A stretch of DNA of 64,000 nucleotides from an uncultured Gammaproteobacteria bacterium (GCA_963797555.1 CAWCPV010000007.1:128001-192000); one strand, 5' to 3'. Shown: positions 32,170 through 56,388, counted from the first letter of the stretch. Translations and numbers: made by a program. Notes: a model not told the origin generated them from the sequence alone.

Positions 32170-32186
32170 AGTGTACCCGATGGACT

Positions 32187-36716: not shown

Positions 36717-36859
36717 CTGCCCTCAGCGCACGAGCGGCGGGCATCGCGCCGCTCGCCCGGAAAGGTCGGAGTCGACGACCCACCCCCCTCGGCCGTCCGC
36801 GGTGCGGTGCCAGTAGCAGGCCCGACGAAATGCGGTCGGCCGGGCGGGTCGGGACCGTG

Positions 36860-37759
36860 TTACATCAGCCGGTATTTCCGGAACCTTTTGTCCCGCAAAC
36901 TGGCTCCTTCGCCGCCCGCGGAGGCATCGGCGACCTCGCCGCGAATGGCGGCAAGGCGCTCCGACGCCGGTGGATGGGTCTTGTAGAAGCCGGTGTCGCT
37001 CCGGCCCGAGTTCCGTTCCAGCTTCTGCAGCATAGAAGCGAGCCCGGACGGATCGTAGCCCGAGGCGCGCAGGATCTGCACCGCCGCCTGGTCGGCATTC
37101 AGCTCTTGGTCGCGAGAGTAGCCGGAGACCACCATCCGATTCACGATGTCGTTGATGCTGGCGTCGAAGGCGTCGGTCAGCGCGATGAGGTTGCGGCCTT
37201 GGCTGGAGCGCTGCAGGGCGGATTGACCGATGAGCGTGAATGCCTTGGTGAGATTGGAGGCGCGGATGGCGGAGAGTCCGTGCTGCAGCGTCACGTGGGC
37301 GATTTCGTGTGCCAACACGGCAGCGAGTTCGTCTTCCGATCCCACCATGCGATAAAGGCCGCTGGTTACCAAGATGAAGCCACCCGGCGCGGCGAAGGCG
37401 TTGATTTCCGGGGAGTCGATCAGCTCGAAGTGGTAACCGGCGAAGGTCTCCGGACGCGCGGAGAACTTGCTCAGATAGCCGCCGACCTCGTTCAGGTACT
37501 GGTTGACCGAACGGTTCGCCAGCGGCCTGTAGCTGCCGAAGACCTGCGCGGCGACCGAGCGCCCGATGTAGTACTCCTCCTCCGGGGTGAGGTCCTCGAC
37601 CCCCTTACGTAAGCTAGTCACCACCTCGGCGCCGGACCCGGCATGCTGCATCAGTGTGTTCCAGCCGCCGAGGTCGAACGCCCCCACCGTGCTCGGTGTC
37701 GCCGATCCGAACACCGCTGTGAGCCATAAGGGAGCGATGACCCGTTTCAGTTGCCCCAT
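36860..37759 (-). CDS. Exported M48-family zinc metallopeptidase
   Basis: EEYYIGR, INAFAAPGG, VLAHEIAH, YSRDQELNAD, THP...R. Confidence 0.9.
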   Translation of the reverse strand: MGQLKRVIAPLWLTAVFGSATPSTVGAFDLGGWNTLMQHAGSGAEVVTSLRKGVEDLTPEEEYYIGRSVAAQVFGSYRPLANRSVNQYLNEVGGYLSKFSARPETFAGYHFELIDSPEINAFAAPGGFILVTSGLYRMVGSEDELAAVLAHEIAHVTLQHGLSAIRASNLTKAFTLIGQSALQRSSQGRNLIALTDAFDASINDIVNRMVVSGYSRDQELNADQAAVQILRASGYDPSGLASMLQKLERNSGRSDTGFYKTHPPASERLAAIRGEVADASAGGEGASLRDKRFRKYRLM

Positions 37760-38474: not shown

Positions 38475-40610
38475 TCACTTGCTGACATGGATAAATGCAC
38501 CGTCCCAATCCTCAGCCGGGGGATTGTGCCGGAAGTGCCTGACCCGCGCCATCAGTGCTTGTGTGGGTGGATCGCCTCCCAGTTGCGGCATCTCTTGGAG
38601 AACCCTCTCCGCTTCGTCCCATGCGCGTTCCTGATAAGCCCGAAAGGCCGCTTCGTAATGCTGGCACAGGTCGATCTGCTGTGGCGTGGCCAGGTCCTTG
38701 GGGGCAATGGGCTCGTACACCCGAACCGCATTGCTCTTGCCCTTCACCTTCAGATAGTCGATCTGACGGCCGACGAAGCGTTCCCGCACCGGCTCCCACG
38801 CCGACTCGCCGATCAACATACGGCTGCCATAGGCCTTGTTGAGACCCTCGAGACGCGATGCCTGGTTCACGGTATCGCCGATGGCCGTATAGTCGAACCG
38901 CTCGCGCGAGCCCATGTTCCCGACGATGCATTCGCCCCGGTCGATGCCGATGCGCACCGCCAGCGGTAAGTCCGGGTAAAGGGAGGCGACGTAGGCGGCA
39001 AAGCGCTGCTGACATTCCAGGGCCGCCGCCACCGCCAGCTCGGACTGCTGGGCCTGATCCACGGGGGCCCCCCAGAAGGCCATCACGGCGTCGCCGATGA
39101 ATTTGTCTACCGTCCCTTGACGCGCCAGAATAACCTCGGTCATCTGGGATGTATAGTCGTTCAACATCGCCACCAAGGCTTGGGGTTCCAATCGCTCCGC
39201 CAGGGTGGTGAAGCCGGCCAGGTCGGCGAACAGGACAGTGATCTCCCGTTTCTCACCCCCGAGTTCCAGGCCGTGGGGCGACTGGATGATGCGTTGCACC
39301 ACCTGCGGCGAAACGTAATGACTGAAGGCGCTCTGCAGGAACCGCCGGCGCCGACCTTCCGAATGGTAGCGGTAGGCAGAGGCCAGAATCAGGCCGCTCA
39401 GCGCACAGAGGATGAGCAAGGTCACGTCCCAGACCATCCCCTGGCGGAAACCGAGCTGGGTCGCCGCCAGGCCGCCGCTCAACGCGCCAGCGCTGAGCAG
39501 GGAAGACACCGACGACCGTTGGACCAGCACCGTGGAAGCCACCGCGGCCAAGGTCACTAACCCGGTCAAGAGAAGATTCCAGGCGCCGGCCGCCAAGTGC
39601 AGAAAATCTTTGTCCAGGGCGTTCGAGAGCAGTGTCGCCTGGAGGAAGGCCCCGGGCGTCACCGCGCTGACCGGTGTGGGCTTGAAGTCGAGGAGGCCGG
39701 GCGCCGTATAGGCGACGAAGACGTAACGGTCACGGAACACTTCCGGCGCGATGGGCGGCGTTTCACCTTTGGAGTGCATGACCGCCGATCGAATCACATC
39801 GACCGCCGAGAGGCGCTCGAACTGCTCGCCGCCGCCGCGAAAGCGCAGCAGTAGCCTGCCGGCGGAATCCACCGGCAAGCGCCGCCCGTCGAGACTCATG
39901 CCGTCCTCGTTGCCCCACCGCACCTCGCTGCCTTTCCCCACCAAAGCCGCCAGACCGAGGGCCGGCAGCAGACGCCCGCCAAGGACCACGAAGGGAAGGG
40001 CGGAGCGATACACCCCGTCTTCATCCGGTCCTTGGGTGACGAACGCGACGCCGGCGGCGGCAGAGGAGATTGGCTCCACTGGCAGCGAGACGGTTGCCCG
40101 GGTGAGGGCATCGGGCGGCGTCCCGCGAAACCGGATACCCAATGCCGCCGACGCCTTGCCGCCCGCGGAATCACCACGAGAGACGGCGGCGGCGAGATAA
40201 ACCTTGCCGGAAGCGGCTACCGCATCGGCGAACTCCCGATCGATGTCCGGTCCGAATGGCGATTGGTTATTGAACAGCAAATCGAACAGGATGGCCTTGG
40301 CGCCGCCCATCGTTGCGTACTGCACCAACGGTTTATACAGGGTGCGGGGCCACGGAAAGGGGACGTTGTCCCGGTCGAAGTAGTCGAGGCTGCGCTGGTC
40401 GACCGCGACGATCAAGATGCGCCGGTCGCGGAACGCCGGGTCGCGGTGCAGCAGGTGTTGCAGATTGAGCGCCGTCAGGCGGATCGGCGTGAGCGCCGGG
40501 GACTCCCCGAGGCCACCACCCAGCAGCATGGCGACCGCAGTGATGGCCGCTATTGCCAACCCCCTGGCGGTCGCGGTGGGGGGGCGGGTGGCCGCCGCCG
40601 TTTCCTTCAT
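38475..40610 (-). CDS. CHASE2-domain class III adenylate cyclase
   Basis: PFPWPR, DEDGVYR (CHASE2), 3 TM, LFADLAGFTTLAE, DKFIGDAVMAFWGAP, YTAIGDTVNQASRLE, C-terminal TPR-like tail. Confidence 0.93.
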   Translation of the reverse strand: MKETAAATRPPTATARGLAIAAITAVAMLLGGGLGESPALTPIRLTALNLQHLLHRDPAFRDRRILIVAVDQRSLDYFDRDNVPFPWPRTLYKPLVQYATMGGAKAILFDLLFNNQSPFGPDIDREFADAVAASGKVYLAAAVSRGDSAGGKASAALGIRFRGTPPDALTRATVSLPVEPISSAAAGVAFVTQGPDEDGVYRSALPFVVLGGRLLPALGLAALVGKGSEVRWGNEDGMSLDGRRLPVDSAGRLLLRFRGGGEQFERLSAVDVIRSAVMHSKGETPPIAPEVFRDRYVFVAYTAPGLLDFKPTPVSAVTPGAFLQATLLSNALDKDFLHLAAGAWNLLLTGLVTLAAVASTVLVQRSSVSSLLSAGALSGGLAATQLGFRQGMVWDVTLLILCALSGLILASAYRYHSEGRRRRFLQSAFSHYVSPQVVQRIIQSPHGLELGGEKREITVLFADLAGFTTLAERLEPQALVAMLNDYTSQMTEVILARQGTVDKFIGDAVMAFWGAPVDQAQQSELAVAAALECQQRFAAYVASLYPDLPLAVRIGIDRGECIVGNMGSRERFDYTAIGDTVNQASRLEGLNKAYGSRMLIGESAWEPVRERFVGRQIDYLKVKGKSNAVRVYEPIAPKDLATPQQIDLCQHYEAAFRAYQERAWDEAERVLQEMPQLGGDPPTQALMARVRHFRHNPPAEDWDGAFIHVSK

Positions 40611-40766: not shown

Positions 40767-42533
40767 TCACGACCTCCGGGACATGAGGCCGAGCAGGGTC
40801 GCTGCCGCCTCACGGGGGCCGCTTGCCTCGTAACCCGGAAGGCCGAGCCGGGTGCGCATCTGACCGACGAACACGCCGGCGGCGAACGCTGCCTCGAAGG
40901 TGTGCCGTGCGATGGCGTCGTGCGCGAGCGGCCGCTGGGCCGGCCCGAACACATTGGCGAAGTAGGTGCTCACCAGGCCGGTCGAGCTGGTCGTGCCCCT
41001 CGACATCGCGGTGCCCTCACGAAAGACGCGCACCGCGGCATCCACGGAGCCGAAGCGCTCGATGATGGGGTGCTGCTCGTCGACCGGCTGGTAGTTGTTG
41101 GCGTACAGGAGAAAATCGATGGGATACCCGCGCTGCACCTCCTCGATCGTGGTCACCGGAAGGACGACCCGCGCGTTGACCTTTTGCGGGCTCATGATGA
41201 TGGCCCGGTCGATCTGGCCGAAGGCGTAACCCCGCTGCAGGTCATCGAGGCGCACGAAGGCCCCGATCTCCGTCCCATAGCCGAGCAGTCGGCCGTCCCG
41301 TGCCACCTCGACCGATCCCATGTCGTCGGCCACGATACGCAGCTCCCCGACGACATCGTCGCCCAGCAGCCGCAGCGCCTCAAGCGTCTCCGACTTGCCG
41401 GTCGCGGTGTCTCCGAGGAGCAGCATAGTGGCCGCCACCCCGTTGCGCAGCACGACGCGCGCGAGGGCACCGTGGAACGGCATCAGCCCCTTCTTCATCA
41501 CCGCCACGTTGTGCAGCGTGAGCGCCATCTTCTTCACATAGCCGAAGTAGCCGAACCGCTCTTCGAGCGGTACGGCGCCCACCAGCAGGTCGCTGGTCTC
41601 GTCGTCGTAAAACACGGTCGGGGCGTGGCCGAACCGCGCAAGGGCCTGCGGCGGTGCGCCATAAAGGTAGATCGCATCAGGGCCGGCTGCGACTTGCTGA
41701 TCGCTGGCCATCTCGAACAGGTTGCCGAGCGCGAGCCCGAGCCCGGCGAAGCGCTGGTGGAAGTAGGCGAACACGACCAGGCGCCCGACCACCGCCGGGT
41801 AGCACATCCAGCGCTCCTTTTCGAGCGACATGCCGGCGAGCGGGTTCTCGTAGACCTCGACGAACTGTCCGGAGCGAGTGTTGGCGGGCGGGTCGAGGAT
41901 AAGCGGCGGATACATCAGCAGGTGACGCACGAAGGGGATGCCGACGAGCAGGTCGCGGTAGCTTTCGGGCATGCGCCAAGCGCGCTGCACGGCGATGACG
42001 CCCATGTCGGCACCGGCCGGAACCTGCCGGTACACGCGCGGATGACTGGCGGTGATATTCTCGACCACGTCGCGATACAGGTCGCGCACGAGCTGCGCGA
42101 GGGTTTCGACGGTCCGGTTGAACGTGCGGTACGGGCGCCGGTCGTGGCTGTCGGGCCCGCCTTCGGAGTGGTTGACCATGAAACGGTCGAAGCTCCGCCA
42201 GAAGTCGTACAGGCCCTCGGCGAGCTCGTGAAGAGCGGTGCGTTGACTGAGCAGCTTGGCGCTGTCCGGCGACGTGCCGGCGATGCGTTCGAGCGGGTTG
42301 TGCGCCAGCACGCGCAGCACGTCCACGAGGCGCGCCCGCCGAGGCGGGTCGGCGGCGTCAATTTCAAGCTCGTCGAGCACGGGAGCCCTGTGTGCAGCGA
42401 GGCGTTCCAGGTACAAAGCGACCACGCGCTCGAAGGCGGCGCTTTCGACGAGCTCCCGCGTCGTCCCGCAAATGGTCCCCTCGGTATGCAGCACGAGCTG
42501 CCCGGGGCCTTCGTCCATCCTGAGAAGCGGCAT
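40767..42533 (-). CDS. PEP-carboxykinase-like P-loop protein (~590 aa)
   Basis: YFGYVKKMALTLHN, PFHG, GDTATGKSE (Walker A), VADDMG, GTEIGAFVRLDD, NAR; start at MPLLRMDEG is a guess. Confidence 0.75.
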   Translation of the reverse strand: MPLLRMDEGPGQLVLHTEGTICGTTRELVESAAFERVVALYLERLAAHRAPVLDELEIDAADPPRRARLVDVLRVLAHNPLERIAGTSPDSAKLLSQRTALHELAEGLYDFWRSFDRFMVNHSEGGPDSHDRRPYRTFNRTVETLAQLVRDLYRDVVENITASHPRVYRQVPAGADMGVIAVQRAWRMPESYRDLLVGIPFVRHLLMYPPLILDPPANTRSGQFVEVYENPLAGMSLEKERWMCYPAVVGRLVVFAYFHQRFAGLGLALGNLFEMASDQQVAAGPDAIYLYGAPPQALARFGHAPTVFYDDETSDLLVGAVPLEERFGYFGYVKKMALTLHNVAVMKKGLMPFHGALARVVLRNGVAATMLLLGDTATGKSETLEALRLLGDDVVGELRIVADDMGSVEVARDGRLLGYGTEIGAFVRLDDLQRGYAFGQIDRAIIMSPQKVNARVVLPVTTIEEVQRGYPIDFLLYANNYQPVDEQHPIIERFGSVDAAVRVFREGTAMSRGTTSSTGLVSTYFANVFGPAQRPLAHDAIARHTFEAAFAAGVFVGQMRTRLGLPGYEASGPREAAATLLGLMSRRS

Positions 42534-42970
42534 CGGTTCGGTGGGTCTCCGGTCCAGGCACTGCCGCCGGTTTGGTGCCGGCGTGATGGTGGACCGCGCA
42601 CGAGCGGCGCGCATCCTGAGCATCAAGATATCATGGTAGCTTCGTGGAAGGGGCCAGAGGGTGGGCCAGAGGGCCTCACAGGACTTGGCACCGGCGCTCG
42701 GGCGGGTGCGGCCGACTCCCACATCGGGAAGCGGCTCGCACGCGCCGTTGGCTGCCGCCGTCCGGGTCTCGCGAGATCGGCCGAGTGCTGGATCGACGAG
42801 GCTCCAATCCAAAGGCCCCCGGCGGCCGCTATGGGGATACGCTCGTGGCTGGGTGCTCCGGCCATGCGATGACGGTGAGGTCGGAGAGCGCGCAGACGGC
42901 GGCGGAGGGGGATCTCCGATCGAGGTCGATTCGGTGATTCGCAAAACGACGAACCGGAAGGGTACAGCTC

Positions 42971-43549
42971 ATGAGTGGGCCTTCAATCGTGTTCAGAACC
43001 TATAGACGGACGCCGGTCCGGCATTTCTGGGTGGTCCTGGGAACCGCCGCTATCACCGGGTGCGCTTCGGTATCTTCCGTAGAGCCGATGGGAGAACGCC
43101 CGAAAGAGGTCACGGCGCAGGTGTGGCAAGGGACCTGGATACACCAAGAGCATCCGGTGACCGTCAGGGTGTCGGACCCGCGTGCGGGATTGCTCGATGT
43201 CGCGTGGGTGGAAGAGAAGGAAGGTGCGCTAAAGCTCGAATCCTATCGGATCGCCCTGAGAGAATCCGCTGAATCGACCTTCGCGAACACCAAAGATCCG
43301 GGTCAGCCCGGTCGTTATCTGTGGGCCCTGGTCAAGCGGGAGGACGAACAGATCGTGGTGTGGACCCCGGACGCCGTCCAGTGCGCGAAGCGGGTTCAAG
43401 CGGGTGTGCTGGCCGGGACGGTCGGCAAGGGGGGAGACGTAACCTTGGGAAAGCTCTCTTCGAAGCAGATCAAACAACTGGCCTCTCCCGGTCAGGGCAG
43501 TTGCTTGAGGTGGACCGAGCCGCTGGTGTTCTTCCGCGTCGGAAAGTAG
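42971..43549 (+). CDS. Hypothetical lipoprotein
   Basis: Hydrophobic stretch and lipobox-like ITG-C; 192-aa ORF. Confidence 0.6.
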   Translation: MSGPSIVFRTYRRTPVRHFWVVLGTAAITGCASVSSVEPMGERPKEVTAQVWQGTWIHQEHPVTVRVSDPRAGLLDVAWVEEKEGALKLESYRIALRESAESTFANTKDPGQPGRYLWALVKREDEQIVVWTPDAVQCAKRVQAGVLAGTVGKGGDVTLGKLSSKQIKQLASPGQGSCLRWTEPLVFFRVGK

Positions 43550-43973
43550 CGGCCGGAGCCAGACCCCACTGATTGGGACCTAGCCACCCGCTCTCGGGCG
43601 TCGAAGATCCCCTGTGCAGCGAAGGACAGGTCTCCAGGTGCTCCTCGGGGTTCTGGCGGAACGTACGGGCCGACTGCGGGCAATCGGGGCGAAACCCCGT
43701 CGACTGTTGCTCCCGCGACGCTGAATCTCTCTGCATCCGCCGAGGTGCTGCACCCATCGTCCGCCGCGCCTGCCCGAAACCGGTGACGAAACCGGGCCGG
43801 AAACCGTGACTGGGCAGGGCCAATGCCGGTCACTGCCCAGCGCACGCGGGATTAACACTCTCGGCCTGTCCGGGCAGTGTGCCGGGGTGTGCAGGATCGA
43901 CGACGCTCATCCGGACGTGGGCTGGGCCGCCGTGTAATACTGGTGCGGGTCAATTTATCAACGCTAACCGAGC

Positions 43974-45788
43974 ATGCCGAAAGTCCGTAAAGGCTCCCGC
44001 TCCCCCTCCCTGGTGCCGAAAAAGCTCACCCGGGAGCGGGACCAGGTGCTCGAGTTCGTGCGTCGGGGTCAACAGCTCGCGAACGTTCTCGATGACCCCG
44101 GCCTCAGCGGGGAGATCGACCAGCTTTCCGCCAGTGCCCTGAAGCCTTTTTTGTTCGTCGTCGTGGGCGAGGTCAAGTCCGGCAAGAGCAGCCTCATCAA
44201 CGCTCTGCTGGAGGCCCCGGTGTGCGCCGTGGACAGTGCCCCCTGCACGACGCGTGTGCAGGAGATCAGCTACGCGGAGGAGGAGAGCCGCACCGAGGTC
44301 TCCGAGTTCGAGGAGCACCTGCACCTGCCCCATGCCATCCTGCGGCACATCGCCATCGTCGACACTCCCGGCACCAACTCCATCATTCGTGAGCACCAGC
44401 GCATCACCGAGAACTACATCCCCCAGAGCGACCTGGTGCTGTTCGTGTTCTTCGCGAAGAACCCTTACACCGGGAGCGCCTGGGACTTCCTGCGCTACAT
44501 CAAACACGACTGGCAGCGCAACACCCTGTTCGTACTCCAGCAGGCGGACCTGCTGGATGCCGGGGAATTGGAGCGCACGCTATCGCTGGTCAAGCAGCAG
44601 CTCGCCGAAGAGAGCATTGCCGAGCCCGTCGTCTTCCCGGTCTCCGTGCTCACCGCTGAAGGCTTGGACGTGCTGCGCGAGTACCTGCGCATCGAGGTGG
44701 TTCAGGGGCGGCAATTCAATAAGAGCATCTCGCTGACACACAACGTCCTGCGTTTCTTGCGCCGCCTGGAAGCCGCCTTGCGCGATCACGAATGCCTCCT
44801 GCAGAACGATGAGACGTTGCTGGGCGAGCTGCGCCAACTGGCCGTCGGGTTGGGGCCGGAAGCGGACCAGGAATACGCGGCCCTGACGGCGAGGGCGCGG
44901 CACTACGCGGACGAGGCGCGACAGTGGCTGTTCGGGCAGGCCGTCGCGGCCGGCAGCTCGGGTGCTGATGTTGCCCGGGCCGGCTGGAGCTGGCGGGACT
45001 GGCGCTCGCTCCGGGAGCGCATGCGGCGCCTCGGGGCGGCTCTCGCGGAGCGCGCCGCGGTCGGGGAGGCTCTGTCCAGCGGCTGGGACAGGTCGCTGCG
45101 TACCGCCGAGCGCTTCAACCGGCTGCAGCTCGACCTGAACCGCTGTCTGTTTCGGGCACAGTTGCGGCGTATCGACCTCTACCGACAACTGAAACGGCAG
45201 GTGGAGCAGCAGCTCGCTGCCATCGCCGCCGATCCCCCGTGCCTTGCGAAACCGCTCGACGATGCGCTCGCGCGCGGGCGTCAGCGAACCCTCACCCGGG
45301 CCCGCGACGCGGTCCAGAGCCTCGGCGAGCTCGGCCTGGAGGGCTCCATCTCGCGGCTTCCCGCGCTGAGCGCGCTGAGGCCCTGGTCGTCTGTCTACGG
45401 AGTCGCTCAGGTTGGTGCCGGGGCGGCTTGCCTGGTCGTCGGCTACCGCCTGGACGATCTGCTGGCGGGCTTGCTGCTCGGCGTGGTGGGCTATCTGGGA
45501 GCCGGGTACGCTCTGGCCCGTCGGAGCCGGGCGCGTATCGGCGGACAGGCCGCGGCTGCGCTGGAGAAGAGCATCGAGGACGTCGACCGGCGGCTGCGCG
45601 AGACCCTCCTGACCCAGCCCCCCGAGCTGCAGGGCGCCATGCAGGATACCGTGGGCCGGTTCGAGCGCGACCTCGAGGAGCGGCGGGCTCGAACCGAAGA
45701 GCTGCTTCCCTCGGTCAACGCCTTGCGCGAGGACATCAAGCGCTTTCAATCGGAGGTGTGGGCCGATGCGGTGGAGGGTGACCAGTGA
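43974..45788 (+). CDS. Bacterial dynamin-like GTPase, copy 1
   Basis: G1 GEVKSGKSS, G2 PCTT, G3 DTPG, G4 QQAD, helical stalk, C-terminal hydrophobic hairpin. Confidence 0.88.
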   Translation: MPKVRKGSRSPSLVPKKLTRERDQVLEFVRRGQQLANVLDDPGLSGEIDQLSASALKPFLFVVVGEVKSGKSSLINALLEAPVCAVDSAPCTTRVQEISYAEEESRTEVSEFEEHLHLPHAILRHIAIVDTPGTNSIIREHQRITENYIPQSDLVLFVFFAKNPYTGSAWDFLRYIKHDWQRNTLFVLQQADLLDAGELERTLSLVKQQLAEESIAEPVVFPVSVLTAEGLDVLREYLRIEVVQGRQFNKSISLTHNVLRFLRRLEAALRDHECLLQNDETLLGELRQLAVGLGPEADQEYAALTARARHYADEARQWLFGQAVAAGSSGADVARAGWSWRDWRSLRERMRRLGAALAERAAVGEALSSGWDRSLRTAERFNRLQLDLNRCLFRAQLRRIDLYRQLKRQVEQQLAAIAADPPCLAKPLDDALARGRQRTLTRARDAVQSLGELGLEGSISRLPALSALRPWSSVYGVAQVGAGAACLVVGYRLDDLLAGLLLGVVGYLGAGYALARRSRARIGGQAAAALEKSIEDVDRRLRETLLTQPPELQGAMQDTVGRFERDLEERRARTEELLPSVNALREDIKRFQSEVWADAVEGDQ

Positions 45789-45844
45789 GACACCAGTGGT
45801 CAGGGCCAGGGATGCGGTGCTCAGGTATCGAACAACCTCAGTCC

Positions 45845-45926
45845 CGTCATTCCGGTGAATGCCGGAATCCAACCCTGCAACGTGCGCGTCCTGAATCTCG
45901 GGATATCGGCTTGCACGGGCATGACG
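45845..45926. repeat. REP-like palindromic doublet
   Basis: CGTCATTCCGGTGAATGCCGGAATCCA ... GGATATCGGCTTGCACGGGCATGACG (convergent, second copy degenerate). Confidence 0.65.
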
Positions 45927-46179
45927 TTTGGTACTGAACATGGCTGTCGTCCCAGGACGGCAAGGTGTGGACCGATGCGGTTCACGACCACCCGTGAGCC
46001 CCCGCGCCGGTTTGGCGGTCCTGATGACCTGCCGGACGTCTTCCGTCTCGCCATGAGCCGTCCGGCCAGGCGTTTGGCCGCAGGTTCACGCTTACCGGCC
46101 ACTCCGACAGCGGCCCGTGCTACCTTTGACTCCGGCCGGCGCAGCAGCGCGCCCTTCGAGTCCGCAGCGTACACCGACG

Positions 46180-47940
46180 ATGCTACGTATTGCTAAATCC
46201 CTGTTCGACAGGAGCCTGGTCCCGAGCGCCCTGACCCAGCAGCGGGATCAGTTGCTGGGCTTCATACGGCAGGGCCAGCAGCTCGCCACCGTGCTGGGTG
46301 AGTCTGCGCTCAGCGCCGAGATCGACCAGCTTTCCGCCAGTGCCGTGAAGCCTTTTTTGTTCGTCGTCGTGGGCGAGGTCAAGTCCGGCAAGAGCAGCCT
46401 CATCAACGCTCTGCTGGAGGCCCCGGTGTGCGCCGTGGACAGTGCCCCCTGCACGACCCGGGTGCAGGAGATCAGCTACGGGGAGGAGGAGAGCCGCACC
46501 GAGGTCTCCGAGTTCGAAGAGCACTTGCACCTGCCCCATGCCATTCTGCGGCACATCGCCATCGTCGACACTCCCGGCACCAACTCCATCATTCGTGAGC
46601 ACCAGCGCATCACCGAGAACTACATCCCCCAGAGCGACCTGGTGCTGTTCGTATTCTTCGCGAAGAACCCCTACACCGGGAGCGCCTGGGACTTCCTGCG
46701 CTACATCAAGCACGACTGGCAGCGCAACACCCTGTTCGTGCTCCAGCAGGCGGACCTGCTGCCTTCCGACGAGCGCAAGCGCACCGAGGAGCACATCCGC
46801 GAACAGCTCATCCAAGACGGCATCGAGAACCCCGTCGTGTTCGCGGTGTCGGTCAAGACCGGCAACGGGATGGGGGCGCTGCGCGACTATTTGCGCGCCG
46901 AAGTGATAGAGGGGCGCCAGTTCACCAAGGTCCAGTCCCTGGCGAATAACCTCATGCACTTCGTCGGCGGTCTGGACAAGCTGCTCCACGTACACGAACG
47001 GCTCAACCAGCACGACGAGATCCTGCTCGGAAAGCTCCATGGTCTCACCCTGAACCTGCAGGCCGAGGCCGAAGTAGACAGGCAGGTCGCCGCCATGATG
47101 GACGCCTGCCGGCGCCGCACCGAAGAAGCCGAGCGGCGCCTGCGCAAGCGCTTCCAGGGCCGCCATTCGTTCCTGGACAAGCTCGACACCCTCAAGAACG
47201 CGCTCGGCAGCGGGCACGAGGTACGGCAGTGGCTGGCCGATTTCTTCGCCCAGGTGCAGGCCGAGATCAGCCACGCCCTCTATCAGGACCAGTTGCGCTA
47301 CTTCTCGGAGCTGCACCGCCGCTCCCAGGAGTTGGGTCAGCAGATGCTGGAAGTCCTGGCCAACCGTCCCGGCTACCTCAAGAAATCCGCCTCGGATGCG
47401 CTGGCGCGCCGGCGCGACCAGACCCTGAGCGAGGTCCGCCAGCGCCTGGCCGCCCTCGACGACATCCGCCTCGAGGAGACCGTGCAGCCGCAGGCCTCGC
47501 TCGGGCGCCTGAACCGCCTGATCCTGGCCTACCGCCTGGCTCAGGGCGGGGCCGCGCTGGGGGTGCTGGTCCTCTCGGTGCATTTCGGCGACCTGTTCAG
47601 CGGCCTCATCCTCGCCGGTGTGAGCTACCTGGGCGTCGGGTATGCGCTGTTCGCGCGCAACCGCGAACGCCTGGAGACTCGATGCAGCCTGGCGTTGCAG
47701 GCGAGCCTAGCCGACCTGGAGCAGCGCCTGCGTACCGACATAGGGGAGCACCTGAACAGCCTGAAGGCGGTGGGCGACGGCGCCCTGACCCTGTTCGAGC
47801 GCGACCTCGGCGACCGGCGCAAGCAGACCGAGACCCTGGTCCGCTCGGCCCGCGAGTTACGCGACGGCATCCAGCGCTTCCAGGCGGCAGCGGCCGCGGC
47901 AAGGGCGGGCGGCGGGGCACAGACGGAGGGGGGGGTATGA
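46180..47940 (+). CDS. Bacterial dynamin-like GTPase, copy 2
   Basis: Same G1-G4 motifs; start MLRIAKSLFDRSLVP aligns with copy 1 N-terminus. Confidence 0.88.
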   Translation: MLRIAKSLFDRSLVPSALTQQRDQLLGFIRQGQQLATVLGESALSAEIDQLSASAVKPFLFVVVGEVKSGKSSLINALLEAPVCAVDSAPCTTRVQEISYGEEESRTEVSEFEEHLHLPHAILRHIAIVDTPGTNSIIREHQRITENYIPQSDLVLFVFFAKNPYTGSAWDFLRYIKHDWQRNTLFVLQQADLLPSDERKRTEEHIREQLIQDGIENPVVFAVSVKTGNGMGALRDYLRAEVIEGRQFTKVQSLANNLMHFVGGLDKLLHVHERLNQHDEILLGKLHGLTLNLQAEAEVDRQVAAMMDACRRRTEEAERRLRKRFQGRHSFLDKLDTLKNALGSGHEVRQWLADFFAQVQAEISHALYQDQLRYFSELHRRSQELGQQMLEVLANRPGYLKKSASDALARRRDQTLSEVRQRLAALDDIRLEETVQPQASLGRLNRLILAYRLAQGGAALGVLVLSVHFGDLFSGLILAGVSYLGVGYALFARNRERLETRCSLALQASLADLEQRLRTDIGEHLNSLKAVGDGALTLFERDLGDRRKQTETLVRSARELRDGIQRFQAAAAAARAGGGAQTEGGV

Positions 47941-48190
47941 ACCTGTCTGTGACCATATTGTTTTATTCCGCGACGGCAGCCAGGAGAGCGGCGGCCGGCT
48001 GCAGACAGGGGGCCAATGAACTCGTCAAGGGGCTCCTATCCCCCTGAGCAGACTGCCCTCCCAGTTTCTGAAGGGCGGCCGATCAGGGACTCCTATGCCT
48101 GGCACGGTTCGTTGTGCGGTCGGTGTGTGCCGCTCGGCCGCCTGCTCCAACCCCATGGCTCGCACGGCGTCTCATACGTTATCCGGAGTT

Positions 48191-48217
48191 GTGCTACGCT
48201 TGATGTCGATGTAGCAC
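48191..48217. promoter_or_regulatory. Toxin-antitoxin operator palindrome
   Basis: GTGCTAC-N13-GTAGCAC, 16 bp upstream of antitoxin start. Confidence 0.65.
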
Positions 48218-48232
48218 CTTGGGGGCAGCACC

Positions 48233-48460
48233 GTGCGGGAACTGACCATACGCGAGATGCGCGAGAATCTAGGTCGGCTGGGCGAGCTGGTGGAAGGGGA
48301 GGGCGAGGTTGTCATCACGCGCCGGGGAATACCCATCGCCCGCCTGCTGCCAGTGAAGAACGTGCGTCGGCGGCCATCTCATGCCGAACTGCGCGCGTCG
48401 ATGCCCTTCCTGAAGACGCCGAACGAGAAGCTGGTCAGAGCCGACAGGAACGAGCGGTAG
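48233..48460 (+). CDS. Phd/YefM-family antitoxin
   Basis: TIREMRENLGRL...GEVVITRRGIPIARLLP. Confidence 0.85.
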   Translation: MRELTIREMRENLGRLGELVEGEGEVVITRRGIPIARLLPVKNVRRRPSHAELRASMPFLKTPNEKLVRADRNER

Positions 48461-48680
48461 AGCACGGTCTATGTGGATACGTCCGCATTGGCGAAGTGGT
48501 ACGTCAATGAAGCCAGATCGGAGGACTTCGCGGCCTGGGTGCAGCAGGAAGCTGAGCTGCACATCAGTACATTGACCGCGGTCGAAATGCGGTGCCTCCT
48601 TGCCCGGCGTCGCCGCAACCGCGAGCTGACCCAAACGCAGCACACGCGTTGCACCTGGAAGTGGTGCGGTTCGACTGAGC
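48461..48680 (+). pseudogene. VapC (PIN) toxin with internal deletion
   Basis: VYVDTSALAKWYVNE...ISTLTAVEM; jumps to ALHLEVVR in another frame then stops. Confidence 0.75.
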
Positions 48681-49185
48681 GTTCACGGCGTCGGCGAGGA
48701 CCGCTCCGGGGCCGCGAATAAAGCACGGCAGGGCTCTTTAACTCAGACCTGCGGCACCAGCAGTGAGGACCTCACCCGCACCGTCAATGCCCACCGATCG
48801 TGAGTCCGCAATACCCTGACGGCGTGTGTTGTCCCGAGTGTTTTGGTCACCCAACACCACGCGCCATCGTGGAGGACGAGTCCAAGGAAGTCGGAACCTG
48901 CGATTTTTGCGGGTCGACTGCCGTCCCGATCCTACATGTGTCTGCTTTATCGGACGCCTTCCGCAATGCAACGAGTATTTACTCCGCTGCTGAGCGTGGT
49001 GCGTCAATTCCTCCTTGGACTGAGCCCTATGACGAAGGGGACCCCCTCCACGTCCTACTGCAAGACGACTGGCAAGTCGTCAGCGAGAAACTCACCGGCT
49101 CCGATAACGTTTCAGCCCTGCTCCAAGCCATTCTCGAAGCTGGATGGGACGATGATAGCGGAGAGCCTTTTCCGGATGCCAATGC

Positions 49186-50842
49186 CCTGGACCCGTGACT
49201 TGAATCTCCGAGCGCCCGGGGCGCGAGAGAATGGGAGCTATTCTCAGTTGAGTTGGTTAGTTTTTAGCCAACCGGTGACGCCGGCTATGTACAGCGGGCG
49301 TAGACCCTCGTCGGCGCAGGAGTGACGGCGGGGCTTTGAGGCTTGGACGCTGAATTTCGGGCGTAGGTTTACACCGGGGTCTGGTGAGGCCCGGGTCGAG
49401 TTTCTATGGAGGTCGTCCTAGCTACCCGAAGGCGAGTTGGTAATACAGCTGCTCGAAGGCGCGGAAGCCGGGACAGAGCCGGCTGAAGCGCAGCTTCAGT
49501 CTGCGGGCGGTGGCGACCAACCGGGCGGCGAGGTACATCAGTTCCTGGAGGACGGTCTTGATCCGCCGGCGCTTGGCCGGATGGCGCAGGGGAGCCGACT
49601 CGCCGGTCAGCCCGATGAGCCCGATGAAGCGCAGGATGTTGTAGGCGAACACGGCAAAGGCGAGCACCAGGTCATTGGTGTCGAATTTCCCGGAGGGCAG
49701 CCGTTCGATATCGAGGTCGGTCTTGAACTCGCTGTGGAACTGCTCGGAGGTCCCGGTACAGGGCGACGATCTCCGCGTCCGGATAGGCGAGCGAGGTCCA
49801 CCAGCCATCGAGCTCCAGCTCCGGTACCAACAGCGCCTGGCCCTTCTTGTCGATGGTGCGCTCGGTCACCCGCATCACCCGGCGAACGTGGTAGGTGTGC
49901 TCCCGATGGGGGTGCTCCTCGACGACGCTGAACAGCGCCACGCGCTTGCCGGGTCGGGGTGTCTCCCATGCCCCTTGGCGCTCGGCGCGCTCCAGCCAAT
50001 GGGCAGGGTCCTCGCCCCGAGGGTTCCACTGGATAATGAAGTCCACCTCCTCTTCGAGGTAGCGCAGCCGGTTCTCCAAGGCGTCGTGGGCGCTGTCCTG
50101 GCGCACCAGCAGCGGCAGTTTGGTCAGGCGCCTGGCCCGCGGCAGGATGCGCTCCCAGACCTAGCCGAATTCCTTCTGACTGTGCTGCTTGCCTTCTCGC
50201 AGCTCACAGCCGACGCACCACCCTTCGGTTCCCACGTAGGTCGCGATCGGCGCATAACCGTCATAGCCGTGGTAGGTGCGCGAGACTCCTTCTTGCTTGG
50301 TCCCGGAGTTGTCCATGGGAAAGACATCGATGTCCACCGGCACATGACCGGTCTTGAGCGCACTGACCGGTGCCTTGGCGTTGACCATGAACTCGATATC
50401 GGCCTCGTCAATGACCTCCCGCAGGACCGCTGCGTGCTCGTCGAGACGCTGCCTCAGCGTTTCTGGCGAGGGTACCCGCTCCAGCCCCAACGCCTGGCGG
50501 AAGAAATCGTCCTCTCGGACGTTGGAGACCGCTTCGAAGTCGCTCTTGCCCAAACACATCAACCCCAGATAGCTCTTGGCTACGTCTTCATGGGAGATGC
50601 CGTGGCGTAGCGGGATCGCCTCCTTCAGCGCCTTGCCCAACCCGCTAAAGCGGTTGACGCAAAGACCGACCAAGGCCAGACCAGAATGGGAGGTGTAAAA
50701 TTCCTCATCGGACTGCTCCAAGATGAACCGCTTCATCGTTCACCTGCCGGGTGAGCTGGAGTGCGGCCCGATTTTAGCTGAACTGCAATGATAAATCAGC
50801 AGGTTGCGGCCATCCGCTGAGACGCGAAGTCACGGAATCAGG
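49186..50842 (-). mobile_element. IS1380-family insertion sequence
   Basis: TIRs CCTGGACCCGTGACTT (49186-49201) / AAGTCACGGAATCAGG (50827-50842); 5-bp TSD AATGC. Confidence 0.93.
49422..50736 (-). pseudogene. IS1380 transposase with in-frame TAG (50161) and frameshift (~49750)
   Basis: YTSHSGLALVG, VDIDVFPMDNSGTKQEGVSRTY, LREGKQHSQ, GTSEQFHSEFKTDLDIERLPSGKF. Confidence 0.88.
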
Positions 50843-51695
50843 AATGCCCTATTCGTACGCGTGCCGTCGTGTCTCTACCAAGCTCCTGACGAATCGTGGG
50901 AAGAGTTCAGTCAGCGAGTGCGAAAAGACGGGTCGATAGAACATCAACTTCCCCATGCTCTCGAAGAGGACATCTACTGTCTTGAGAAGGAAATCCCCGA
51001 ACGAAGCACGTTTTACAGAGCCCGGAAAGGGTTTGAAGAGGATGCTTGGGGGCACAAGCAGCCATACAGGGGTGCCGAGATTGGGCTGCCATCACCTGAA
51101 AAGGCATTACCAGGACGGGCGAATAAGGGGGGCGAACCAGTCCTATACCTCGCGAAGGAAGAAAGGACAGCCGTCTCTGAGATTCGGCCAGCTCGCGGAC
51201 TACTGGTCTCTGTAGGGGAATTTGCCACCCGTCGCTCCACTCGCCTGCTCGACTTTGGTCAGCCCCATTGCGGAACCCGATCCTTTCGTGGACGACCCAC
51301 TGCGTTACTTGGATGGAGTTCGCTGGGCTGATGAGAGCTTTCGCTTCGTCTTTGTCCCAACCGTTGGAACGCGACGATACAACAGAAGATTACCGCGCGT
51401 CGCAGTGGCTTTCCGCCTGGATCAGCGATCACGGATTCGATGGTATTCTTTATCCCAGCGCAATGAATCCGAGCGGTGTGAACTTGGTGCTGTTTGATCC
51501 AAGGGCCGCGTCGGCCGTGGACTCGAATCTCCGAAGGATCACAGATGTTCGGTGGAGCTACAAGGGATTTGGCGATGGAGATGAAGAGTAAGATACGATC
51601 AGTGACCAACTGCATGAACCGGCTGGAGGGGGGGAGGTCGGCGACGCGCCGAAATTGCCGCTGATTCTGGCGGGCTTGACCACCGGTAGGCATTG

Positions 51696-53786
51696 ATGGA
51701 CTCAGTCGCGAAGCAATTAGAGGACATCCTGCGCGCCTACCAGGCAAAACCCGAGCTTATCCGCGAGCACTACAATGGTGAGGAATCTGACCGGCGAGGC
51801 TACGCTGGACGCCCCCTGCTGGAGCTGATCCAGAATGTTGAGGATGCCCTCGCGGACGCGGAACAGCGGGGCGATATGCTGCTGGCGCTCACCGACGGAA
51901 TGCTCACCATCGCCAACCAGGGTACTCCGTTCTCGGAGCGGGGCTTCCAGGCGCTTTGCGATCGGAATGACAGCCCCAATCGCCGCAGCCAGCGTTTCGT
52001 GGGCAGCAAGGGCACCGGATTCAAGGCCGTGCTCAACTGGTCTGACGGACTGGAAATCTACTCGGGGGCCATCGGGGCGCGTTTCGACCGAGTTGAGGCG
52101 GCAACCCGGATCCTTGAGGCTGTATGCGATGAGGGGCGTACGCGGCTCGATGCAGACGGGCACTGGCCAGACTCCCACATGCCCCTCCTGCGGGTGCCGC
52201 TACCGGCGATTCCGGACCAGCGCATGTGTCAGCTCCTTGGCGAAGGCTGGGCAACCGTCATTCGGCTTCATTTGTTCCCCGACAGGGTGACTGAAGTCGG
52301 CGACCAGCTGCGCTCGCTGGATCCGCGCGACCTACTTTTTCTCAGCCACCTCGGCGAGGTGACTCTGCGGCTGGACGGTGTACCGCTCACCTGGACACTG
52401 CACCGGCATCGGCATCGGCAAACCCAGGGCGTCGAATCCCACGACCTAGAGGTGCTGAAGGACGGCAGGACACACGCGAGCTATCGGGTGCTGCGGAGAC
52501 GCCTGCCGGATGTCCGCCCGGAGGAATCCGATGAGGTCGGGGACGTCGAGGTCGCGCTCGCCTACTGCACCGACGCGGGCGACCAAGCGACAGCGAGTTA
52601 CGTCTACAATTTCTTCCCGACAGAGTGCCTTTCCCCCTTGCCGGCGATAGCGATTCACGGGACCTTCCTGCTCACCTCTGACCGCAACCACTTGCGCAAA
52701 GACGATCCGAGCTACCAGGACGCCTTGATCGCGGCCCTCAGCGAGCTGTGCGCAGAGTACCTGATCCCGGAGCTCGTGGATCGTTTCGGACACAGGGCGC
52801 TGAACTATCTGCGGCCTGGGCCGCAGGTGGCGGGCTCATCAGAGAGTGTCGAGCGCGTGCTCAGCGAACGGTTGGTCGGTACGGTCCGGTCGATGCCTTT
52901 CGTGCCCACGGTGAGCGGTCGCAACGTGGCTCCTAAGGACCTGCGGCTGTGGAGCCATAGGTTGGGAGATCTGCTCGACGAGCATCCCGATGCGCCAGAC
53001 GAACCGGCGCTTCCCCGTCCCGCTTGGTGGCGGCGCATGCTTCGTCCGCTGTCCGCGGGCGCCACTCGGAGAGGACGCTCAAATGACCCATGGGATCCAG
53101 CCGTCCTGCACCAAGCATTGAAGGATTTGGCGGGGCGGCGGGATCTCATGGAAGACGCCTTGGCGAGACTGCTTGAGAAACTCGAACGATCGCAGGAGGA
53201 CGCCCATGCGTACCTTCATAACAAGGGGATCAGCGAAGAAGACATCAAGCTCTGGCACCCGCCGGAAACCACGAAGCCGGATCTTCCACTGTCACCCCCA
53301 ATTCGGCATCCCGAACCCGTGCCCATGGTCCCTCCGACCGAACCCGAACCTGAGCCAATTCCGCCTACGACCGGCGTCCCCGCCGTTACCGTCGGGGTAC
53401 CGGCGCCCGAGCCGGTGGTTCTCCCTACGGAGATTCCGCTCGTGACGGTTGTCCCCCCGACCCCGCAGGTACCGCCCAATGTCCCCCCGAGCGGGGGGCC
53501 CGGCCGGGACCAGTCCGCTCGCGAGCACGGCACGACCGCCGAGGCGTGGCTTCGAAAACAGCTCAGCGATCTGTTCCAAGGGCAGTGCGAAGTCAGCGAC
53601 AGACCAGACCGTAGCCAAGGCGGCGAGTCAGACATCGTCATCCGGAGGAACAGTGAAGATCTGCTGCACGTCGAGGCCAAAGCGGTCGAGAGAGGCCTAA
53701 TCTACTGGAGCGAGGGTGAAGTTGAGAAGGCATTGCAGTCGGGAGACAGGTACGCTAGTAACCGTTCAGACCCTCCCACCAGTTGA
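51696..53786 (+). CDS. Sacsin/GHKL ATPase-like N-terminus + DUF3883-like PD-(D/E)XK C-terminus; 3' end cut by IS66
   Basis: LELIQNVEDA, NQGTPFS, GSKGTGFKAV, YNFFPT, HGTFLLTSDRN; Pro-rich linker; G..AEAW...SDIV...HVEAK. Confidence 0.78.
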   Translation: MDSVAKQLEDILRAYQAKPELIREHYNGEESDRRGYAGRPLLELIQNVEDALADAEQRGDMLLALTDGMLTIANQGTPFSERGFQALCDRNDSPNRRSQRFVGSKGTGFKAVLNWSDGLEIYSGAIGARFDRVEAATRILEAVCDEGRTRLDADGHWPDSHMPLLRVPLPAIPDQRMCQLLGEGWATVIRLHLFPDRVTEVGDQLRSLDPRDLLFLSHLGEVTLRLDGVPLTWTLHRHRHRQTQGVESHDLEVLKDGRTHASYRVLRRRLPDVRPEESDEVGDVEVALAYCTDAGDQATASYVYNFFPTECLSPLPAIAIHGTFLLTSDRNHLRKDDPSYQDALIAALSELCAEYLIPELVDRFGHRALNYLRPGPQVAGSSESVERVLSERLVGTVRSMPFVPTVSGRNVAPKDLRLWSHRLGDLLDEHPDAPDEPALPRPAWWRRMLRPLSAGATRRGRSNDPWDPAVLHQALKDLAGRRDLMEDALARLLEKLERSQEDAHAYLHNKGISEEDIKLWHPPETTKPDLPLSPPIRHPEPVPMVPPTEPEPEPIPPTTGVPAVTVGVPAPEPVVLPTEIPLVTVVPPTPQVPPNVPPSGGPGRDQSAREHGTTAEAWLRKQLSDLFQGQCEVSDRPDRSQGGESDIVIRRNSEDLLHVEAKAVERGLIYWSEGEVEKALQSGDRYASNRSDPPTS

Positions 53787-54570: not shown

Positions 54571-56141
54571 TCAAGCGGGCGCAGGAAGCGGCGGTGCCTC
54601 AAAGCCGCGGCGTCGGTGGGCGAGGACATCTCTGAGATAGCACAGCGGGGAGCTCAATCGCAGCCGAGAAGTCTCGATCACACTGGCGAGCAGCGCCAGC
54701 GCCCGGCTGCCTTGTTCGCTGCGGGTCCCCTGGCTGATGCGACGCAGAATCACCCAGTGACGCAGCGCCCGCTCCGCCACGTTGTTGGTCAGCGGCAGCT
54801 GAGGCTCATCCAACACCCGGAAGATCGCCCCCCAGTCGTTGAGCAGCTCCTTGCCCAGCGCCTGGGCCTTGTCATAAGGGCAGCAGCTCATGCGTTCACA
54901 CAGGGCCGTGGAGCTCGTTCGAGCTCGCCCGGGTGGGCTTGCCGCAGGGAGCCGCCCGGTCCCTCGCGGGCGTGATAGACGGCCTGCATCAGCGCATCGA
55001 GCAGGTCATAGACCGCCTGGCCGTAGCCCTGGAGGGTGGGCGAGAGGCAATCCCTCAGGCCCCGGGCCTTGCGAATGAGATGCGCCCAGCAACGCAGGCG
55101 CTTGGCATAGTCCCGATAGACCTGGTACCCATCGCTCATCAGATAGCCGCAGAAGAGATCCTCGATGAGGTTCTGAAACATCTCTTTGGCGCGAGAGCCG
55201 ACCAAGAACAGCGCCGTCGAGGCCGAGATGAACACCCATAACCACAAGGGCTCTCCCCATTGCTTGTGCGGTGTCTCATCGGCATGCATGAGGGCCGCTT
55301 CCAGCAACTGGGTCACCAGCTCATCCTCGACCGGCTCGCAGGCACGGGCGGTCTCCATCACGCATTGGTGGAGGGTGCCGATGCCGAGCGCCAGCCCAAA
55401 CACCTCGTGCAGGAACTCCCGGACCAGGCGGATGGACAGGCGCATCCGAAACCGCAGCCAGACGATGAAGGCGCACAATCCCGGCCCCACCAGGCGCCAC
55501 TCGCCAAGCTCCACCCCTCGCCAGCATCCCAAGTGCTCGGGCGCGCGGTGCGGCGCCTGCCGGGTCTCATGACCACAGTCGCAACGGCTCTGGTAGTATA
55601 CCTGCCGCGTGCAGGTCAGGCGCAGCCCCGGCGCCTGCTCATCGCCAAAGACCAAGTCCAGCCTATCAAAGGCGGTGTAGGGCTTCGCCTGCTCAGGATT
55701 GAGCGCCCCACCACACAGCGCACAACTTCCCGGCCGATGATGGTCCCAATCGGTGACTGTCAGCTTCTGGGCGCGCCCGAATCCCTGGGAGCCAGGCTGC
55801 CGGCCCGCTCGGCGCTGCGTCCCTGAGGTCTTGCCACTCGTGTCCTTTGCGCCCTTCTGGCCGCCAGCCCCGGGGAGGCCATCCTCCTCAGAACGGCTCT
55901 TGGCCTCCTCGTCCTCAGGACCGGCGTCGGCCTCTTCGTCCTCCCGCGCACGCAGCCAGGGGTCTTGACTGCTCGGCGGACGAGAGCTATTGGAGGGACT
56001 CTGATTGAGCCGCTCCCACGCTTCCTTGAGATCCTGCAGCAGGCGGATGCTCAGCGCTGCCAGCGCATCGGGATCCTTCTGCCTCAGCTCCAGAATGCGC
56101 TCCTCGCTGAGCTGACGAAGGTCGTGCTCCTTGAGCACCAT
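54571..56141 (-). CDS. IS66-family transposase (apparent indels near 54905)
   Basis: NSSRPPSSQ, GRQPGSQGFG, MHADETP, LMSDGY..Y, CWAHL, TNNVAERALR. Confidence 0.87.
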
Positions 56142-56388
56142 GATTGTGTGTGACAGTGAGGTCGAGGAACATCCTGCCAAGGGCACCCAACTGTCTCACG
56201 CTGGAACCGTTTTGTCCAGCCCTCCGGGTCAAAATATTCCAGGGGGGTGAACGGTTACCTCATCGAGTGCAAAATGCCGGAACCGCCCGTCACGGAACCA
56301 GTTGGGATCAATTCGATTTGCTGCCAAGTGGTTGTGAAATAGTGAAACTGATATTTGACTGCCGGCGACCTACATGAGCGCAATAGCG

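Follow-up and report, generated by a model that had tools for sequence, protein, structure and literature searches.

A tandem pair of BDLP-class dynamin-like genes with a QQxD G4 motif and a near-identical G-domain tract in an uncultured gammaproteobacterium

The stretch of DNA analysed here, 64,000 nucleotides from an uncultured Gammaproteobacteria bacterium (GCA_963797555.1 CAWCPV010000007.1:128001-192000; referred to as the window), carries two neighbouring genes, dlpA and dlpB, for dynamin-like GTPases of the BDLP (bacterial dynamin-like protein) class. They are the only two members of their family in the genome, a metagenome-assembled genome (MAG) that is 84.6% complete. The pair and its parts, in window coordinates, are as follows.

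43974..45788, + strand: dlpA, 604 residues; A-clade BDLP-class dynamin-like GTPase, assigned from Pfam, alignment, model and fold search
44112..44555, + strand: gene-conversion tract, dlpA copy; codons 47-194, covering G1 (GEVKSGKSS), G2 (PCT), G3 (DTPG), AKNPY and G4 (LQQADLL)
45384..45518, + strand: paddle of dlpA, residues ~471-515; two hydrophobic Gly-rich helices, Kyte-Doolittle 19-residue maximum 1.88
45789..46179, + strand: dlpA-dlpB spacer, 391 nucleotides, occurring once in this genome
46180..47940, + strand: dlpB, 586 residues; B-clade BDLP-class dynamin-like GTPase
46318..46761, + strand: gene-conversion tract, dlpB copy; codons 47-194 (coordinates taken from the codon numbers, which are equal in both genes up to codon 194)
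47518..47658, + strand: paddle of dlpB, residues ~447-493; two hydrophobic Gly-rich helices, Kyte-Doolittle 19-residue maximum 1.89

A first-pass annotation of the window had described two tandem proteins of about 600 residues here, each with a G domain, a helical stalk and a hydrophobic hairpin. Two same-strand open reading frames (ORFs) are present at these positions, and both the coordinates and the architecture were confirmed, the latter by Pfam, a structural model of DlpA, hydropathy and alignment to the BDLP paddle. The dlpB ORF opens at a GTG at 46117 (46117-47940); the start was placed at the ATG at 46180 because a database protein, P0020, has 586 residues and the N terminus of the B clade, MLRIAK, is invariant from the first Met. 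The GC content at third codon positions (GC3) is 0.85 in dlpA, typical for this genome, and 0.88 in dlpB, and the codon composition of both genes is host-like. With 80.5 and 82.8 bits, both proteins lie well above the cut-off of the Pfam Dynamin_N model (PF00350), which is 27. In an alignment of 49 relatives, drawn from Gammaproteobacteria MAGs, Desulfobacterales, Calditrichia, Bacteroidia and cyanobacteria, the G1 motif GEVKSGKSS, the G2 motif PCT with T92 and the G3 motif DTPG are invariant. Judged from these residues, both proteins keep a complete nucleotide-binding site, made up of the P-loop Lys, the switch I Thr, the DTPG of G3 and the Asp of G4. DlpA and DlpB are predicted to bind and hydrolyse GTP and to remodel membranes in a manner that depends on the nucleotide.

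The AlphaFold model of DlpA (predicted local distance difference test score, pLDDT, 81.8; predicted template modelling score, pTM, 0.64) places the G domain at residues 59-224 and, behind it, the long helices of the neck and trunk at 231-335, 343-418, 431-452, 473-547 and 549-602, the fourth being a hairpin of 473-493 and 496-547. With this model Foldseek returned Nostoc punctiforme BDLP as the top match (2j69, 1.3e-16), together with IniA, Campylobacter DLP1/DLP2, LeoA and mitofusin. A profile built from the 49 relatives also matched Nostoc BDLP best in the PDB (1.3e-17), with an alignment that runs through the paddle, ahead of Campylobacter DLP1 (4e-15), Fzo1, IniA (7.5e-6) and LeoA (4aur, 3.8e-4). 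The hydrophobic stretch of the pair aligns onto the BDLP paddle at residues 561-590, and in DlpA and DlpB alike a short polar turn parts two Gly-rich hydrophobic stretches. The earlier suggestion that both partners carry a membrane hairpin is thus borne out, with a paddle and intact G1-G3 motifs in each. DlpA alone has an insert of ~30 residues at ~320-350, rich in Arg and Trp and modelled with low confidence, at the end of the first long helix; in the model this insert lies at the trunk tip, where it would be close to the membrane.

The G4 motif reads LQQADLL in both proteins, where N/TKxD is expected. The first-pass annotation had read the QQAD correctly and had treated it as a peculiarity of this locus; instead it defines a large subfamily. 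All 49 aligned relatives, without exception, have L188, Q189, Q190, D192 and L193. QQxD accounts for 52 of the 78 G4 readings of related genome loci (34 QQK, 15 QQA and 3 QQS), in Saprospiraceae and other Bacteroidota, Pleurocapsales-type cyanobacteria, 'delta proteobacteria' and Chthoniobacterales, and QQ is present in 95 of the 128 family representatives that could be scored from the 150 best. In a sister group, with Deinococcus, Gemmatimonadota, Chloroflexota and other members, the motif is NKxD, NQxD or TKxD. A full-library profile search returned 16,595 proteins at E <= 1e-3, 6,456 at <= 1e-10 and 719 at <= 1e-30, these last making a sizeable set of representative clusters in which the base-recognition motif N/TKxD is replaced by QQxD. 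The 'QQxD' BDLP subfamily, a grouping defined in this analysis and not a curated family, is recognised by LQQxDL, usually accompanied by a GEVKxGKSS P-loop and an AKNP loop, and dlpA and dlpB fit this description. In the literature searched, no description or study of any member of the subfamily was found; the cyanobacterial DLP clades tabulated with PMC5827413 may include some.

Neither protein has the canonical dynamin G4 (N/TKxD or RD), and both retain the specificity Asp, D192. The G4 motif is described as the least conserved one in BDLPs (PMC5827413, in part) and that of BDLP reads NAWD, so QQAD is taken as a signature of the subfamily and not as a ground for exclusion; loss of the G4 Lys therefore has a precedent. 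From the aligned motifs, the distinctive trait here is the Gln in place of the G4 Asn. The G4 Asp gives guanine specificity, and the use of ATP by EHDs stems from features outside the motif letters (PMC5084822, in part).

The QQxD motif is accompanied by a P-loop of the form GEVK-x-GKSS, whose Lys falls at the site of the Arg48 finger of GBP1 and of the cation-binding Ser of dynamin. In other families this position supplies an Arg finger or a cation ligand, and it is occupied by Lys in BDLP and by Asn in Fzo1 (PMC5084822, in part). Among the 66 genome loci scored for both motifs, the P-loop residue and G4 combine as Lys with QQ in 50, Asn with [NT]K in 15 and Gly with NQ in 1. Among the 128 representatives the corresponding counts are 73 for Lys with QQ, 22 for Asn with QQ, 13 for Asn with [NT]K, 5 for Lys with [NT]K and 15 for other combinations. 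The idea that a lysine moved from G4 to the P-loop agrees with all 66 genome loci. It is weakened by the 22 Asn-QQ and the 5 Lys-[NT]K representatives, and was reduced to an association that is not strict. A switch I pair, Cys84/Cys91, is invariant in the 49-sequence alignment and was dropped as a family feature, the second Cys being Met in many Bacteroidota relatives.

DlpA and DlpB are 51% identical overall, and the identity is spread very unevenly along their length. Over codons 47-194 the two genes differ at 11 of 444 nucleotides (97.5% identity), 9 of the differences being synonymous and 2 non-synonymous (L56V and A101G). DNA identity in the flanks of this tract is ~55-60%, and the neck, trunk and paddle have diverged to ~32-37% identity. 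Codons for identical residues differ in 9 of 146 cases within the tract and in 32 of 67 cases in the indel-free flanks (Fisher p 6.6e-12). A second genome with the pair, G171, was the only one available for a further nucleotide test. The tract of its dlpA is 89.2% identical to that of window dlpA (28 synonymous and 16 non-synonymous differences), so that the paralogous tracts within the window are closer to each other than the orthologous dlpA tracts of the two genomes; constraint at the DNA level is therefore no explanation for the 97.5% identity. In the G171 assembly dlpB is interrupted at codons 64 and 173 (end of contig C119 and start of contig C449, loci L089 and L090), and the dlpB codons that can be seen, 47-64 and 173-190, are 100% identical to those of its own dlpA. 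In G171 the identity begins exactly at codon 47 and ends at ~190-194, with the same boundaries as in the window and a different sequence. Finally, P0019, a B-type protein from a metagenome, is 99% identical to DlpB outside the tract and carries the tract protein sequence of window DlpA.

The same behaviour is evident across 37 clade members. Within the tract the mean protein identity of A to B (82%) is as high as that of A to A (80%); outside it, the values are 32% for A to B, 43% for A to A and 66% for B to B. In quick trees the non-tract regions separate A and B as reciprocally monophyletic groups (support 99 and 95, respectively), whereas in the tract tree A and B are interleaved, with 7 label changes required, and monophyly of A is rejected by the approximately unbiased (AU) test (p 0.022). 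The choice of tract columns was made on the window pair, and these columns were then used for every sequence. The eight tracts nearest to that of window dlpA are seven B-type tracts and that of the closest A orthologue, P0003; since seven of the eight are B-type, the donor of the conversion was probably dlpB. Read from these comparisons, the pattern is one of recurrent gene conversion confined to one domain, with the same boundaries in at least two lineages. Pairs of bacterial dynamins, the fold of BDLP and conversion between tandem paralogous genes are each already known; conversion restricted to the G domain of a bacterial dynamin pair was not found reported in the literature searched.

The short-read assembly of G171 is broken at both tract ends inside dlpB; as the tract disrupts assembly in this way, tandem pairs are probably under-counted in metagenomes. 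In four marsh and soil metagenome runs, the short unitigs recovered were 90-99% alike and the two tract copies could not be separated.

The A and B proteins form sister clades with a support of 100 against the outgroup, in agreement with the earlier statement that both partners derive from the same clade. No homologue was detected at E <= 1e-10 in 40 relatives of the same class. A metagenome scan with dlpA gave two loci only, L084 and L085, both without the dlpA G domain, and a scan of genome collections, covering at least 600 stretches and the best 80 of at least 158 relatives, had only distant relatives among the matches listed. Of 78 listed loci, 73 have one G-domain hit, 2 have two (L077 and L079) and 3 have none; each of the 52 QQxD loci has one. 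Because the related QQxD loci are single-copy, the tandem pair represents a duplication specific to this gammaproteobacterial clade, and the module is read from these counts as having arisen by duplication of a single-copy 'QQxD' dynamin within an uncultured Gammaproteobacteria lineage. The order A then B is kept in all four loci in which both genes are visible (the window, G171, L084 and L085), and four further A-like/B-like protein pairs come from contigs of equal size. The tandem clade amounts to ~4 of the representative clusters at 50% identity. Mean column identity is 77% in the B clade and 62% in the A clade. The 280-residue N-terminal extension of one protein, P0006 (877 residues), is of low complexity and looks like an over-long gene call.

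Among characterised systems, Nostoc BDLP (2j68/2j69/2w6d) is the closest by both profile and fold. It shares with the pair the succession of a G domain, a neck, a trunk and a hydrophobic paddle, a Lys at the catalytic P-loop position (GDMKRGKS in BDLP, GEVKSGKS in the pair) and a G4 without Lys. However, BDLP keeps the G4 Asn, in contrast to the pair, which has Gln in place of both N and K, and the structural alignment gives an identity of only 13-14%. The BDLP gene also adjoins a second dynamin gene, and the partners in the cyanobacterial Tandem A/B arrangement 'differ substantially' (PMC5827413, in part), unlike dlpA and dlpB, which are sister paralogues with homogenised G domains. DLP1/DLP2 of Campylobacter jejuni (5owv/5oxf) are likewise encoded by two adjacent dynamin-like genes and form a membrane-tethering hetero-oligomer (PDB entry title), and DLP1 is the second-best PDB profile match to the pair. 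These proteins differ in having a canonical G4, TKAD, and in the distance between the partners (732 and 614 residues). They assemble as a 2:2 tetramer through an assembly domain specific to DLP1, and they are not known to have a homogenised domain.

Eleos/LeoABC resembles the locus as a two-gene dynamin-like operon and provides the best PADLOC matches, but its curated cut-off is missed more than ten-fold in bits, the LeoA profile match is the weak one given above, and defence genes are seldom neighbours of the pair's relatives in the loci compared. DynA of Bacillus subtilis is the favoured functional analogy: it has a BDLP-type unit and binds membranes through its paddle, safeguards the integrity of the membrane and retards lysis by phage (PMC12998192, in part). 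It is, in contrast to the pair, one fused, two-headed polypeptide in which only the D1 half binds membrane (PMC12998192, in part); dlpA and dlpB are separate genes with a long spacer and a paddle in each product. A parallel for the conversion itself is found in mammalian TLR1/TLR6, tandem paralogues in which conversion limits the divergence of one part of the gene (PMC2077338, in part), although these are eukaryotic and belong to a different protein family.

The reading favoured here, with a probability of roughly 0.58, is that dlpA and dlpB form a conserved paralogous BDLP-class module acting as a heterotypic pair that remodels or repairs membranes. Hetero-oligomers are the presumed working form of paired bacterial dynamins. 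In the dynamin superfamily, hydrolysis is activated by head-to-head dimerisation of G domains across the nucleotide (PMC5084822, in part). The paddles would attach DlpA and DlpB to the inner membrane on its cytoplasmic face. In the nucleotide-bound state the two proteins would dimerise head to head through their identical G domains; as the G domains are identical, an A-B contact would be chemically the same as an A-A contact. The diverged stalks and tips may then come together in a heterotypic assembly and, on the model of BDLP, DLP1/DLP2 and DynA, tether, curve, fuse or seal membrane. The role would be maintenance of the envelope or membrane under stress, with a delay of phage lysis at most a side benefit, as with DynA. 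The LPS-core and envelope genes on the left flank, and the WbqC and other envelope genes beside single-copy relatives, speak for this reading. The first-pass annotation had proposed a heterodimeric membrane-repair or anti-phage system. A heteromeric, membrane-acting paralogous pair is the most reasonable part of that proposal, given the gene order kept in G171, L084 and L085; the anti-phage part is not supported. A complex prediction for the isolated stalks (A 228-604 with B 228-586) scored 0.40, the best of three controls scoring 0.00. In the benchmark for this score, the pass mark is reached by 116 of 157 solved complexes and by 2 of 215 mismatched pairs, and passes at or below 0.60, such as this one, are rated weak. 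Agreement between runs extends to at least 58% of contacts, with a partner pLDDT of 66 or more.

Several observations weigh against this reading. The stalk prediction, besides being a weak pass, concerns paralogues excised from their neck bundles, and may reflect a general tendency of stalks in this family to pair. The 391-nucleotide spacer leaves co-transcription of the two genes uncertain here, and a search of sequencing runs listed no RNA run containing the locus. The tract columns used across the clade were pre-defined on the window's own pair. In the four same-contig A/B pairs the tract protein identity is only 82-87%, so the conversion takes place in episodes and is not general to all pairs. 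No other region of the protein is as conserved as the tract, as the A-to-A identity there indicates, and conversion may happen simply where homology survives, without selective meaning. The pair was found in 2 of 400 sampled genomes of the class, namely its own and G171, both less than 90% complete; another genome, G247, could not be scored. This rarity and the unshared flanks fit an accessory function better than core housekeeping.

Much of this could also be accommodated if the two proteins were independent homo-oligomers, working at different sites or under different conditions, with conversion a neutral by-product of tandem paralogues that share a conserved stretch. Each protein has complete catalytic motifs and its own paddle, so neither dynamin obviously needs the other; relatives outside the clade are overwhelmingly single-gene, the tract coincides with the most conserved region and the long spacer permits separate promoters. 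This explanation is nevertheless considered unlikely. The genes stay together and in the same order in the four loci with both visible, no lone A-type gene in a complete context was seen among the genomes and contigs examined, and the far higher conservation of the B clade than of the A clade suggests, on the alignment, asymmetric and complementary roles; the stalk-stalk prediction adds weak support. That the near-identical tract might be an assembly chimera or a collapsed repeat in the MAG was considered because of the incompleteness of the genome and because repeats of this size trouble short-read assemblers, as the break in G171 illustrates. It is hardly credible: the copies differ at 11 sites and so are not one sequence read out twice, the source contig is 619,545 bp long, the independent genome G171 has the same boundaries around a different tract sequence, and P0019 independently carries, in a B-type protein, a tract identical at the protein level to that of window DlpA.

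A further alternative, one that draws on the flanks of the pair, is dedicated phage defence of the Eleos (LeoA/LeoBC) type, in which the two GTPases, at the edge of a defence island, would sense or counter phage at a late stage of infection.

23527-37759: envelope and lipopolysaccharide (LPS)-core block with an Asn-synthase/GT4 fusion, O-antigen ligase (Wzy_C), two GT4s, a GT9 heptosyltransferase, an MsbA-like ABC exporter, NamZ and an M48 peptidase
38475-40610, - strand: fusion of a CHASE2 sensor and a class III nucleotidyl cyclase, divergent from the dynamin side
40767-42944, - strand: 725-residue ORF with GC3 0.84 and a strong coding signal, between the CHASE2-cyclase and the dynamin pair
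42971-43549: lipoprotein-like ORF on the left flank of the pair
48800-49198: CxxC-containing ORF, within a low-GC stretch at 48800-51331
50161-50736, - strand: DDE_Tnp_1_4 transposase fragment
50804-51331: RES-domain ORF
51693-53786, + strand: truncated TmtA (Tiamat), 697 residues; PADLOC PDLC03964 at 7.4e-79 over profile positions 11-425 of 1538; NCBIfam sacsin-like P-loop
53850-56186: DruA (Druantia) fragment of 218 residues, then IS66 transposase pieces (54571-54891 and 54888-56186, - strand)

Eleos is a two-gene dynamin operon that stands beside known defence systems in 60% of cases and requires both P-loops for defence (Millman 2022 preprint, in part). The pair likewise consists of two consecutive dynamin-like genes and is rare, with variable flanks; LeoA and LeoBC are its best PADLOC matches; the truncated TmtA, the RES-domain ORF, the DruA fragment and insertion sequence (IS) elements lie downstream; and the pair in L085 is followed by a ribbon-helix-helix (RHH) gene and an HTH+HipA pair. 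Such a role is judged a little less probable still than independent homo-oligomers. The PADLOC matches amount to only 53-68 bits on profiles of 559-601 positions, that of DlpA covering the G domain alone, and with the NCBIfam LeoA/HP0731 model (NF041922), whose cut-off is 325 bits, the two proteins reach 26.7 and 27.8, scores typical of a distant superfamily relative. The DynA equivalog model NF052648 has a cut-off of 1600 bits and yields 41.1 and 45, and by these profile scores the pair is a member of neither Eleos nor DynA. BDLP is far closer than LeoA in the profile search, the codon composition is host-like, and the left flank is given over to envelope biosynthesis. On the right, the GC content falls and the genes are degraded; the stretch at 48800-51331 looks like a RES-type toxin gene interrupted by an IS, and the defence genes are wrecks that are absent beside the pairs of relatives. 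Genes with a defence or mobile character (AAA_15/21 twice, Uma2, EAD11-TonB twice and an integrase) make up only ~6 of the 132 found immediately beside 69 related loci. The placement of the pair at the head of a defence island, made in the first-pass annotation, is therefore not upheld: the model scores are weak, the flanks unshared and the island decayed. The right flank is a decayed mobile region, and the defence remnants beside the pair are taken as an accident of location. Since the module is rare and its flanks change, there is still room for an accessory role, possibly related to stress or phage.

Beyond the heterotypic membrane-remodelling pair preferred here, a more specific proposal can be made tentatively, with the odds clearly against it: that homogenisation of the G domain is selected, giving 'one motor, two adaptors', and that the QQxD/P-loop Lys subfamily has its own solution to catalysis and nucleotide recognition. 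If so, conversion would keep the heads of DlpA and DlpB interchangeable and their head-to-head contacts those of a homodimer, while stalks and tips specialise. DlpA would have the extra Arg/Trp membrane loop that DlpB lacks, and the labour might plausibly be divided between two different membrane surfaces or lipid states bridged by the pair. The P-loop Lys would act in cis in place of a cation or Arg finger, and the contacts to the base would be altered. The locus itself is a natural experiment on partner compatibility, in which the motor has been copied between partners in no fewer than two lineages, within the same boundaries, as the membrane-proximal parts diverged; the conversion pattern points to the part that must match and the part that carries specialisation.

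The spacer matched no Rfam family. It contains a perfect 7-bp inverted repeat, ATTCCGG ... CCGGAAT, at ~45849-45871, and measures 391 nucleotides in the window compared with ~170 in G171 and L085. Single low-depth contigs from related strains join 45792 to 46175 and omit it. A promoter and terminator scan of 43400-48900 gave consensus-level hits only, inside the conversion tract and at the same site in both copies.

Of the remaining neighbours, the 725-residue ORF matched no Pfam, NCBIfam or PADLOC family. The cyclase fusion was considered as a Pycsar component and rejected, as PADLOC PycC matches it only through the generic cyclase domain. Upstream of the pair in G171 lie genes for signalling and repair, those of a PAS-GAF-GGDEF-EAL protein and PMSR, and downstream of that in L085 the RHH and HTH+HipA genes already mentioned; no flanking gene of the window is common to G171, L084 or L085. 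Three A/B loci had any flank in which co-localisation with defence genes could be judged. Besides the CHASE2-cyclase near the pair in the window, there are the PAS-GAF-GGDEF-EAL gene in G171 and a GAF-cyclase gene adjoining a distant relative at L081, possibly by coincidence.

For the most part, single-copy relatives are surrounded by housekeeping and envelope genes: WbqC accounts for ~19 of the 132 immediate neighbours and polysaccharide pyruvyl transferase for 4, and several others are envelope-related. Clustering of 824 neighbour ORFs gave lineage-specific synteny only, and no flanking ORF of the window matched any of these clusters. A WbqC-like cluster is present in 21 loci, all Saprospiraceae-type, where this polysaccharide-related gene lies 5' of a single-copy QQKD dynamin on the same strand (L006, L011, L013, L021, L023-L030, L033, L037-L039, L045, L047, L048, L053 and L074).

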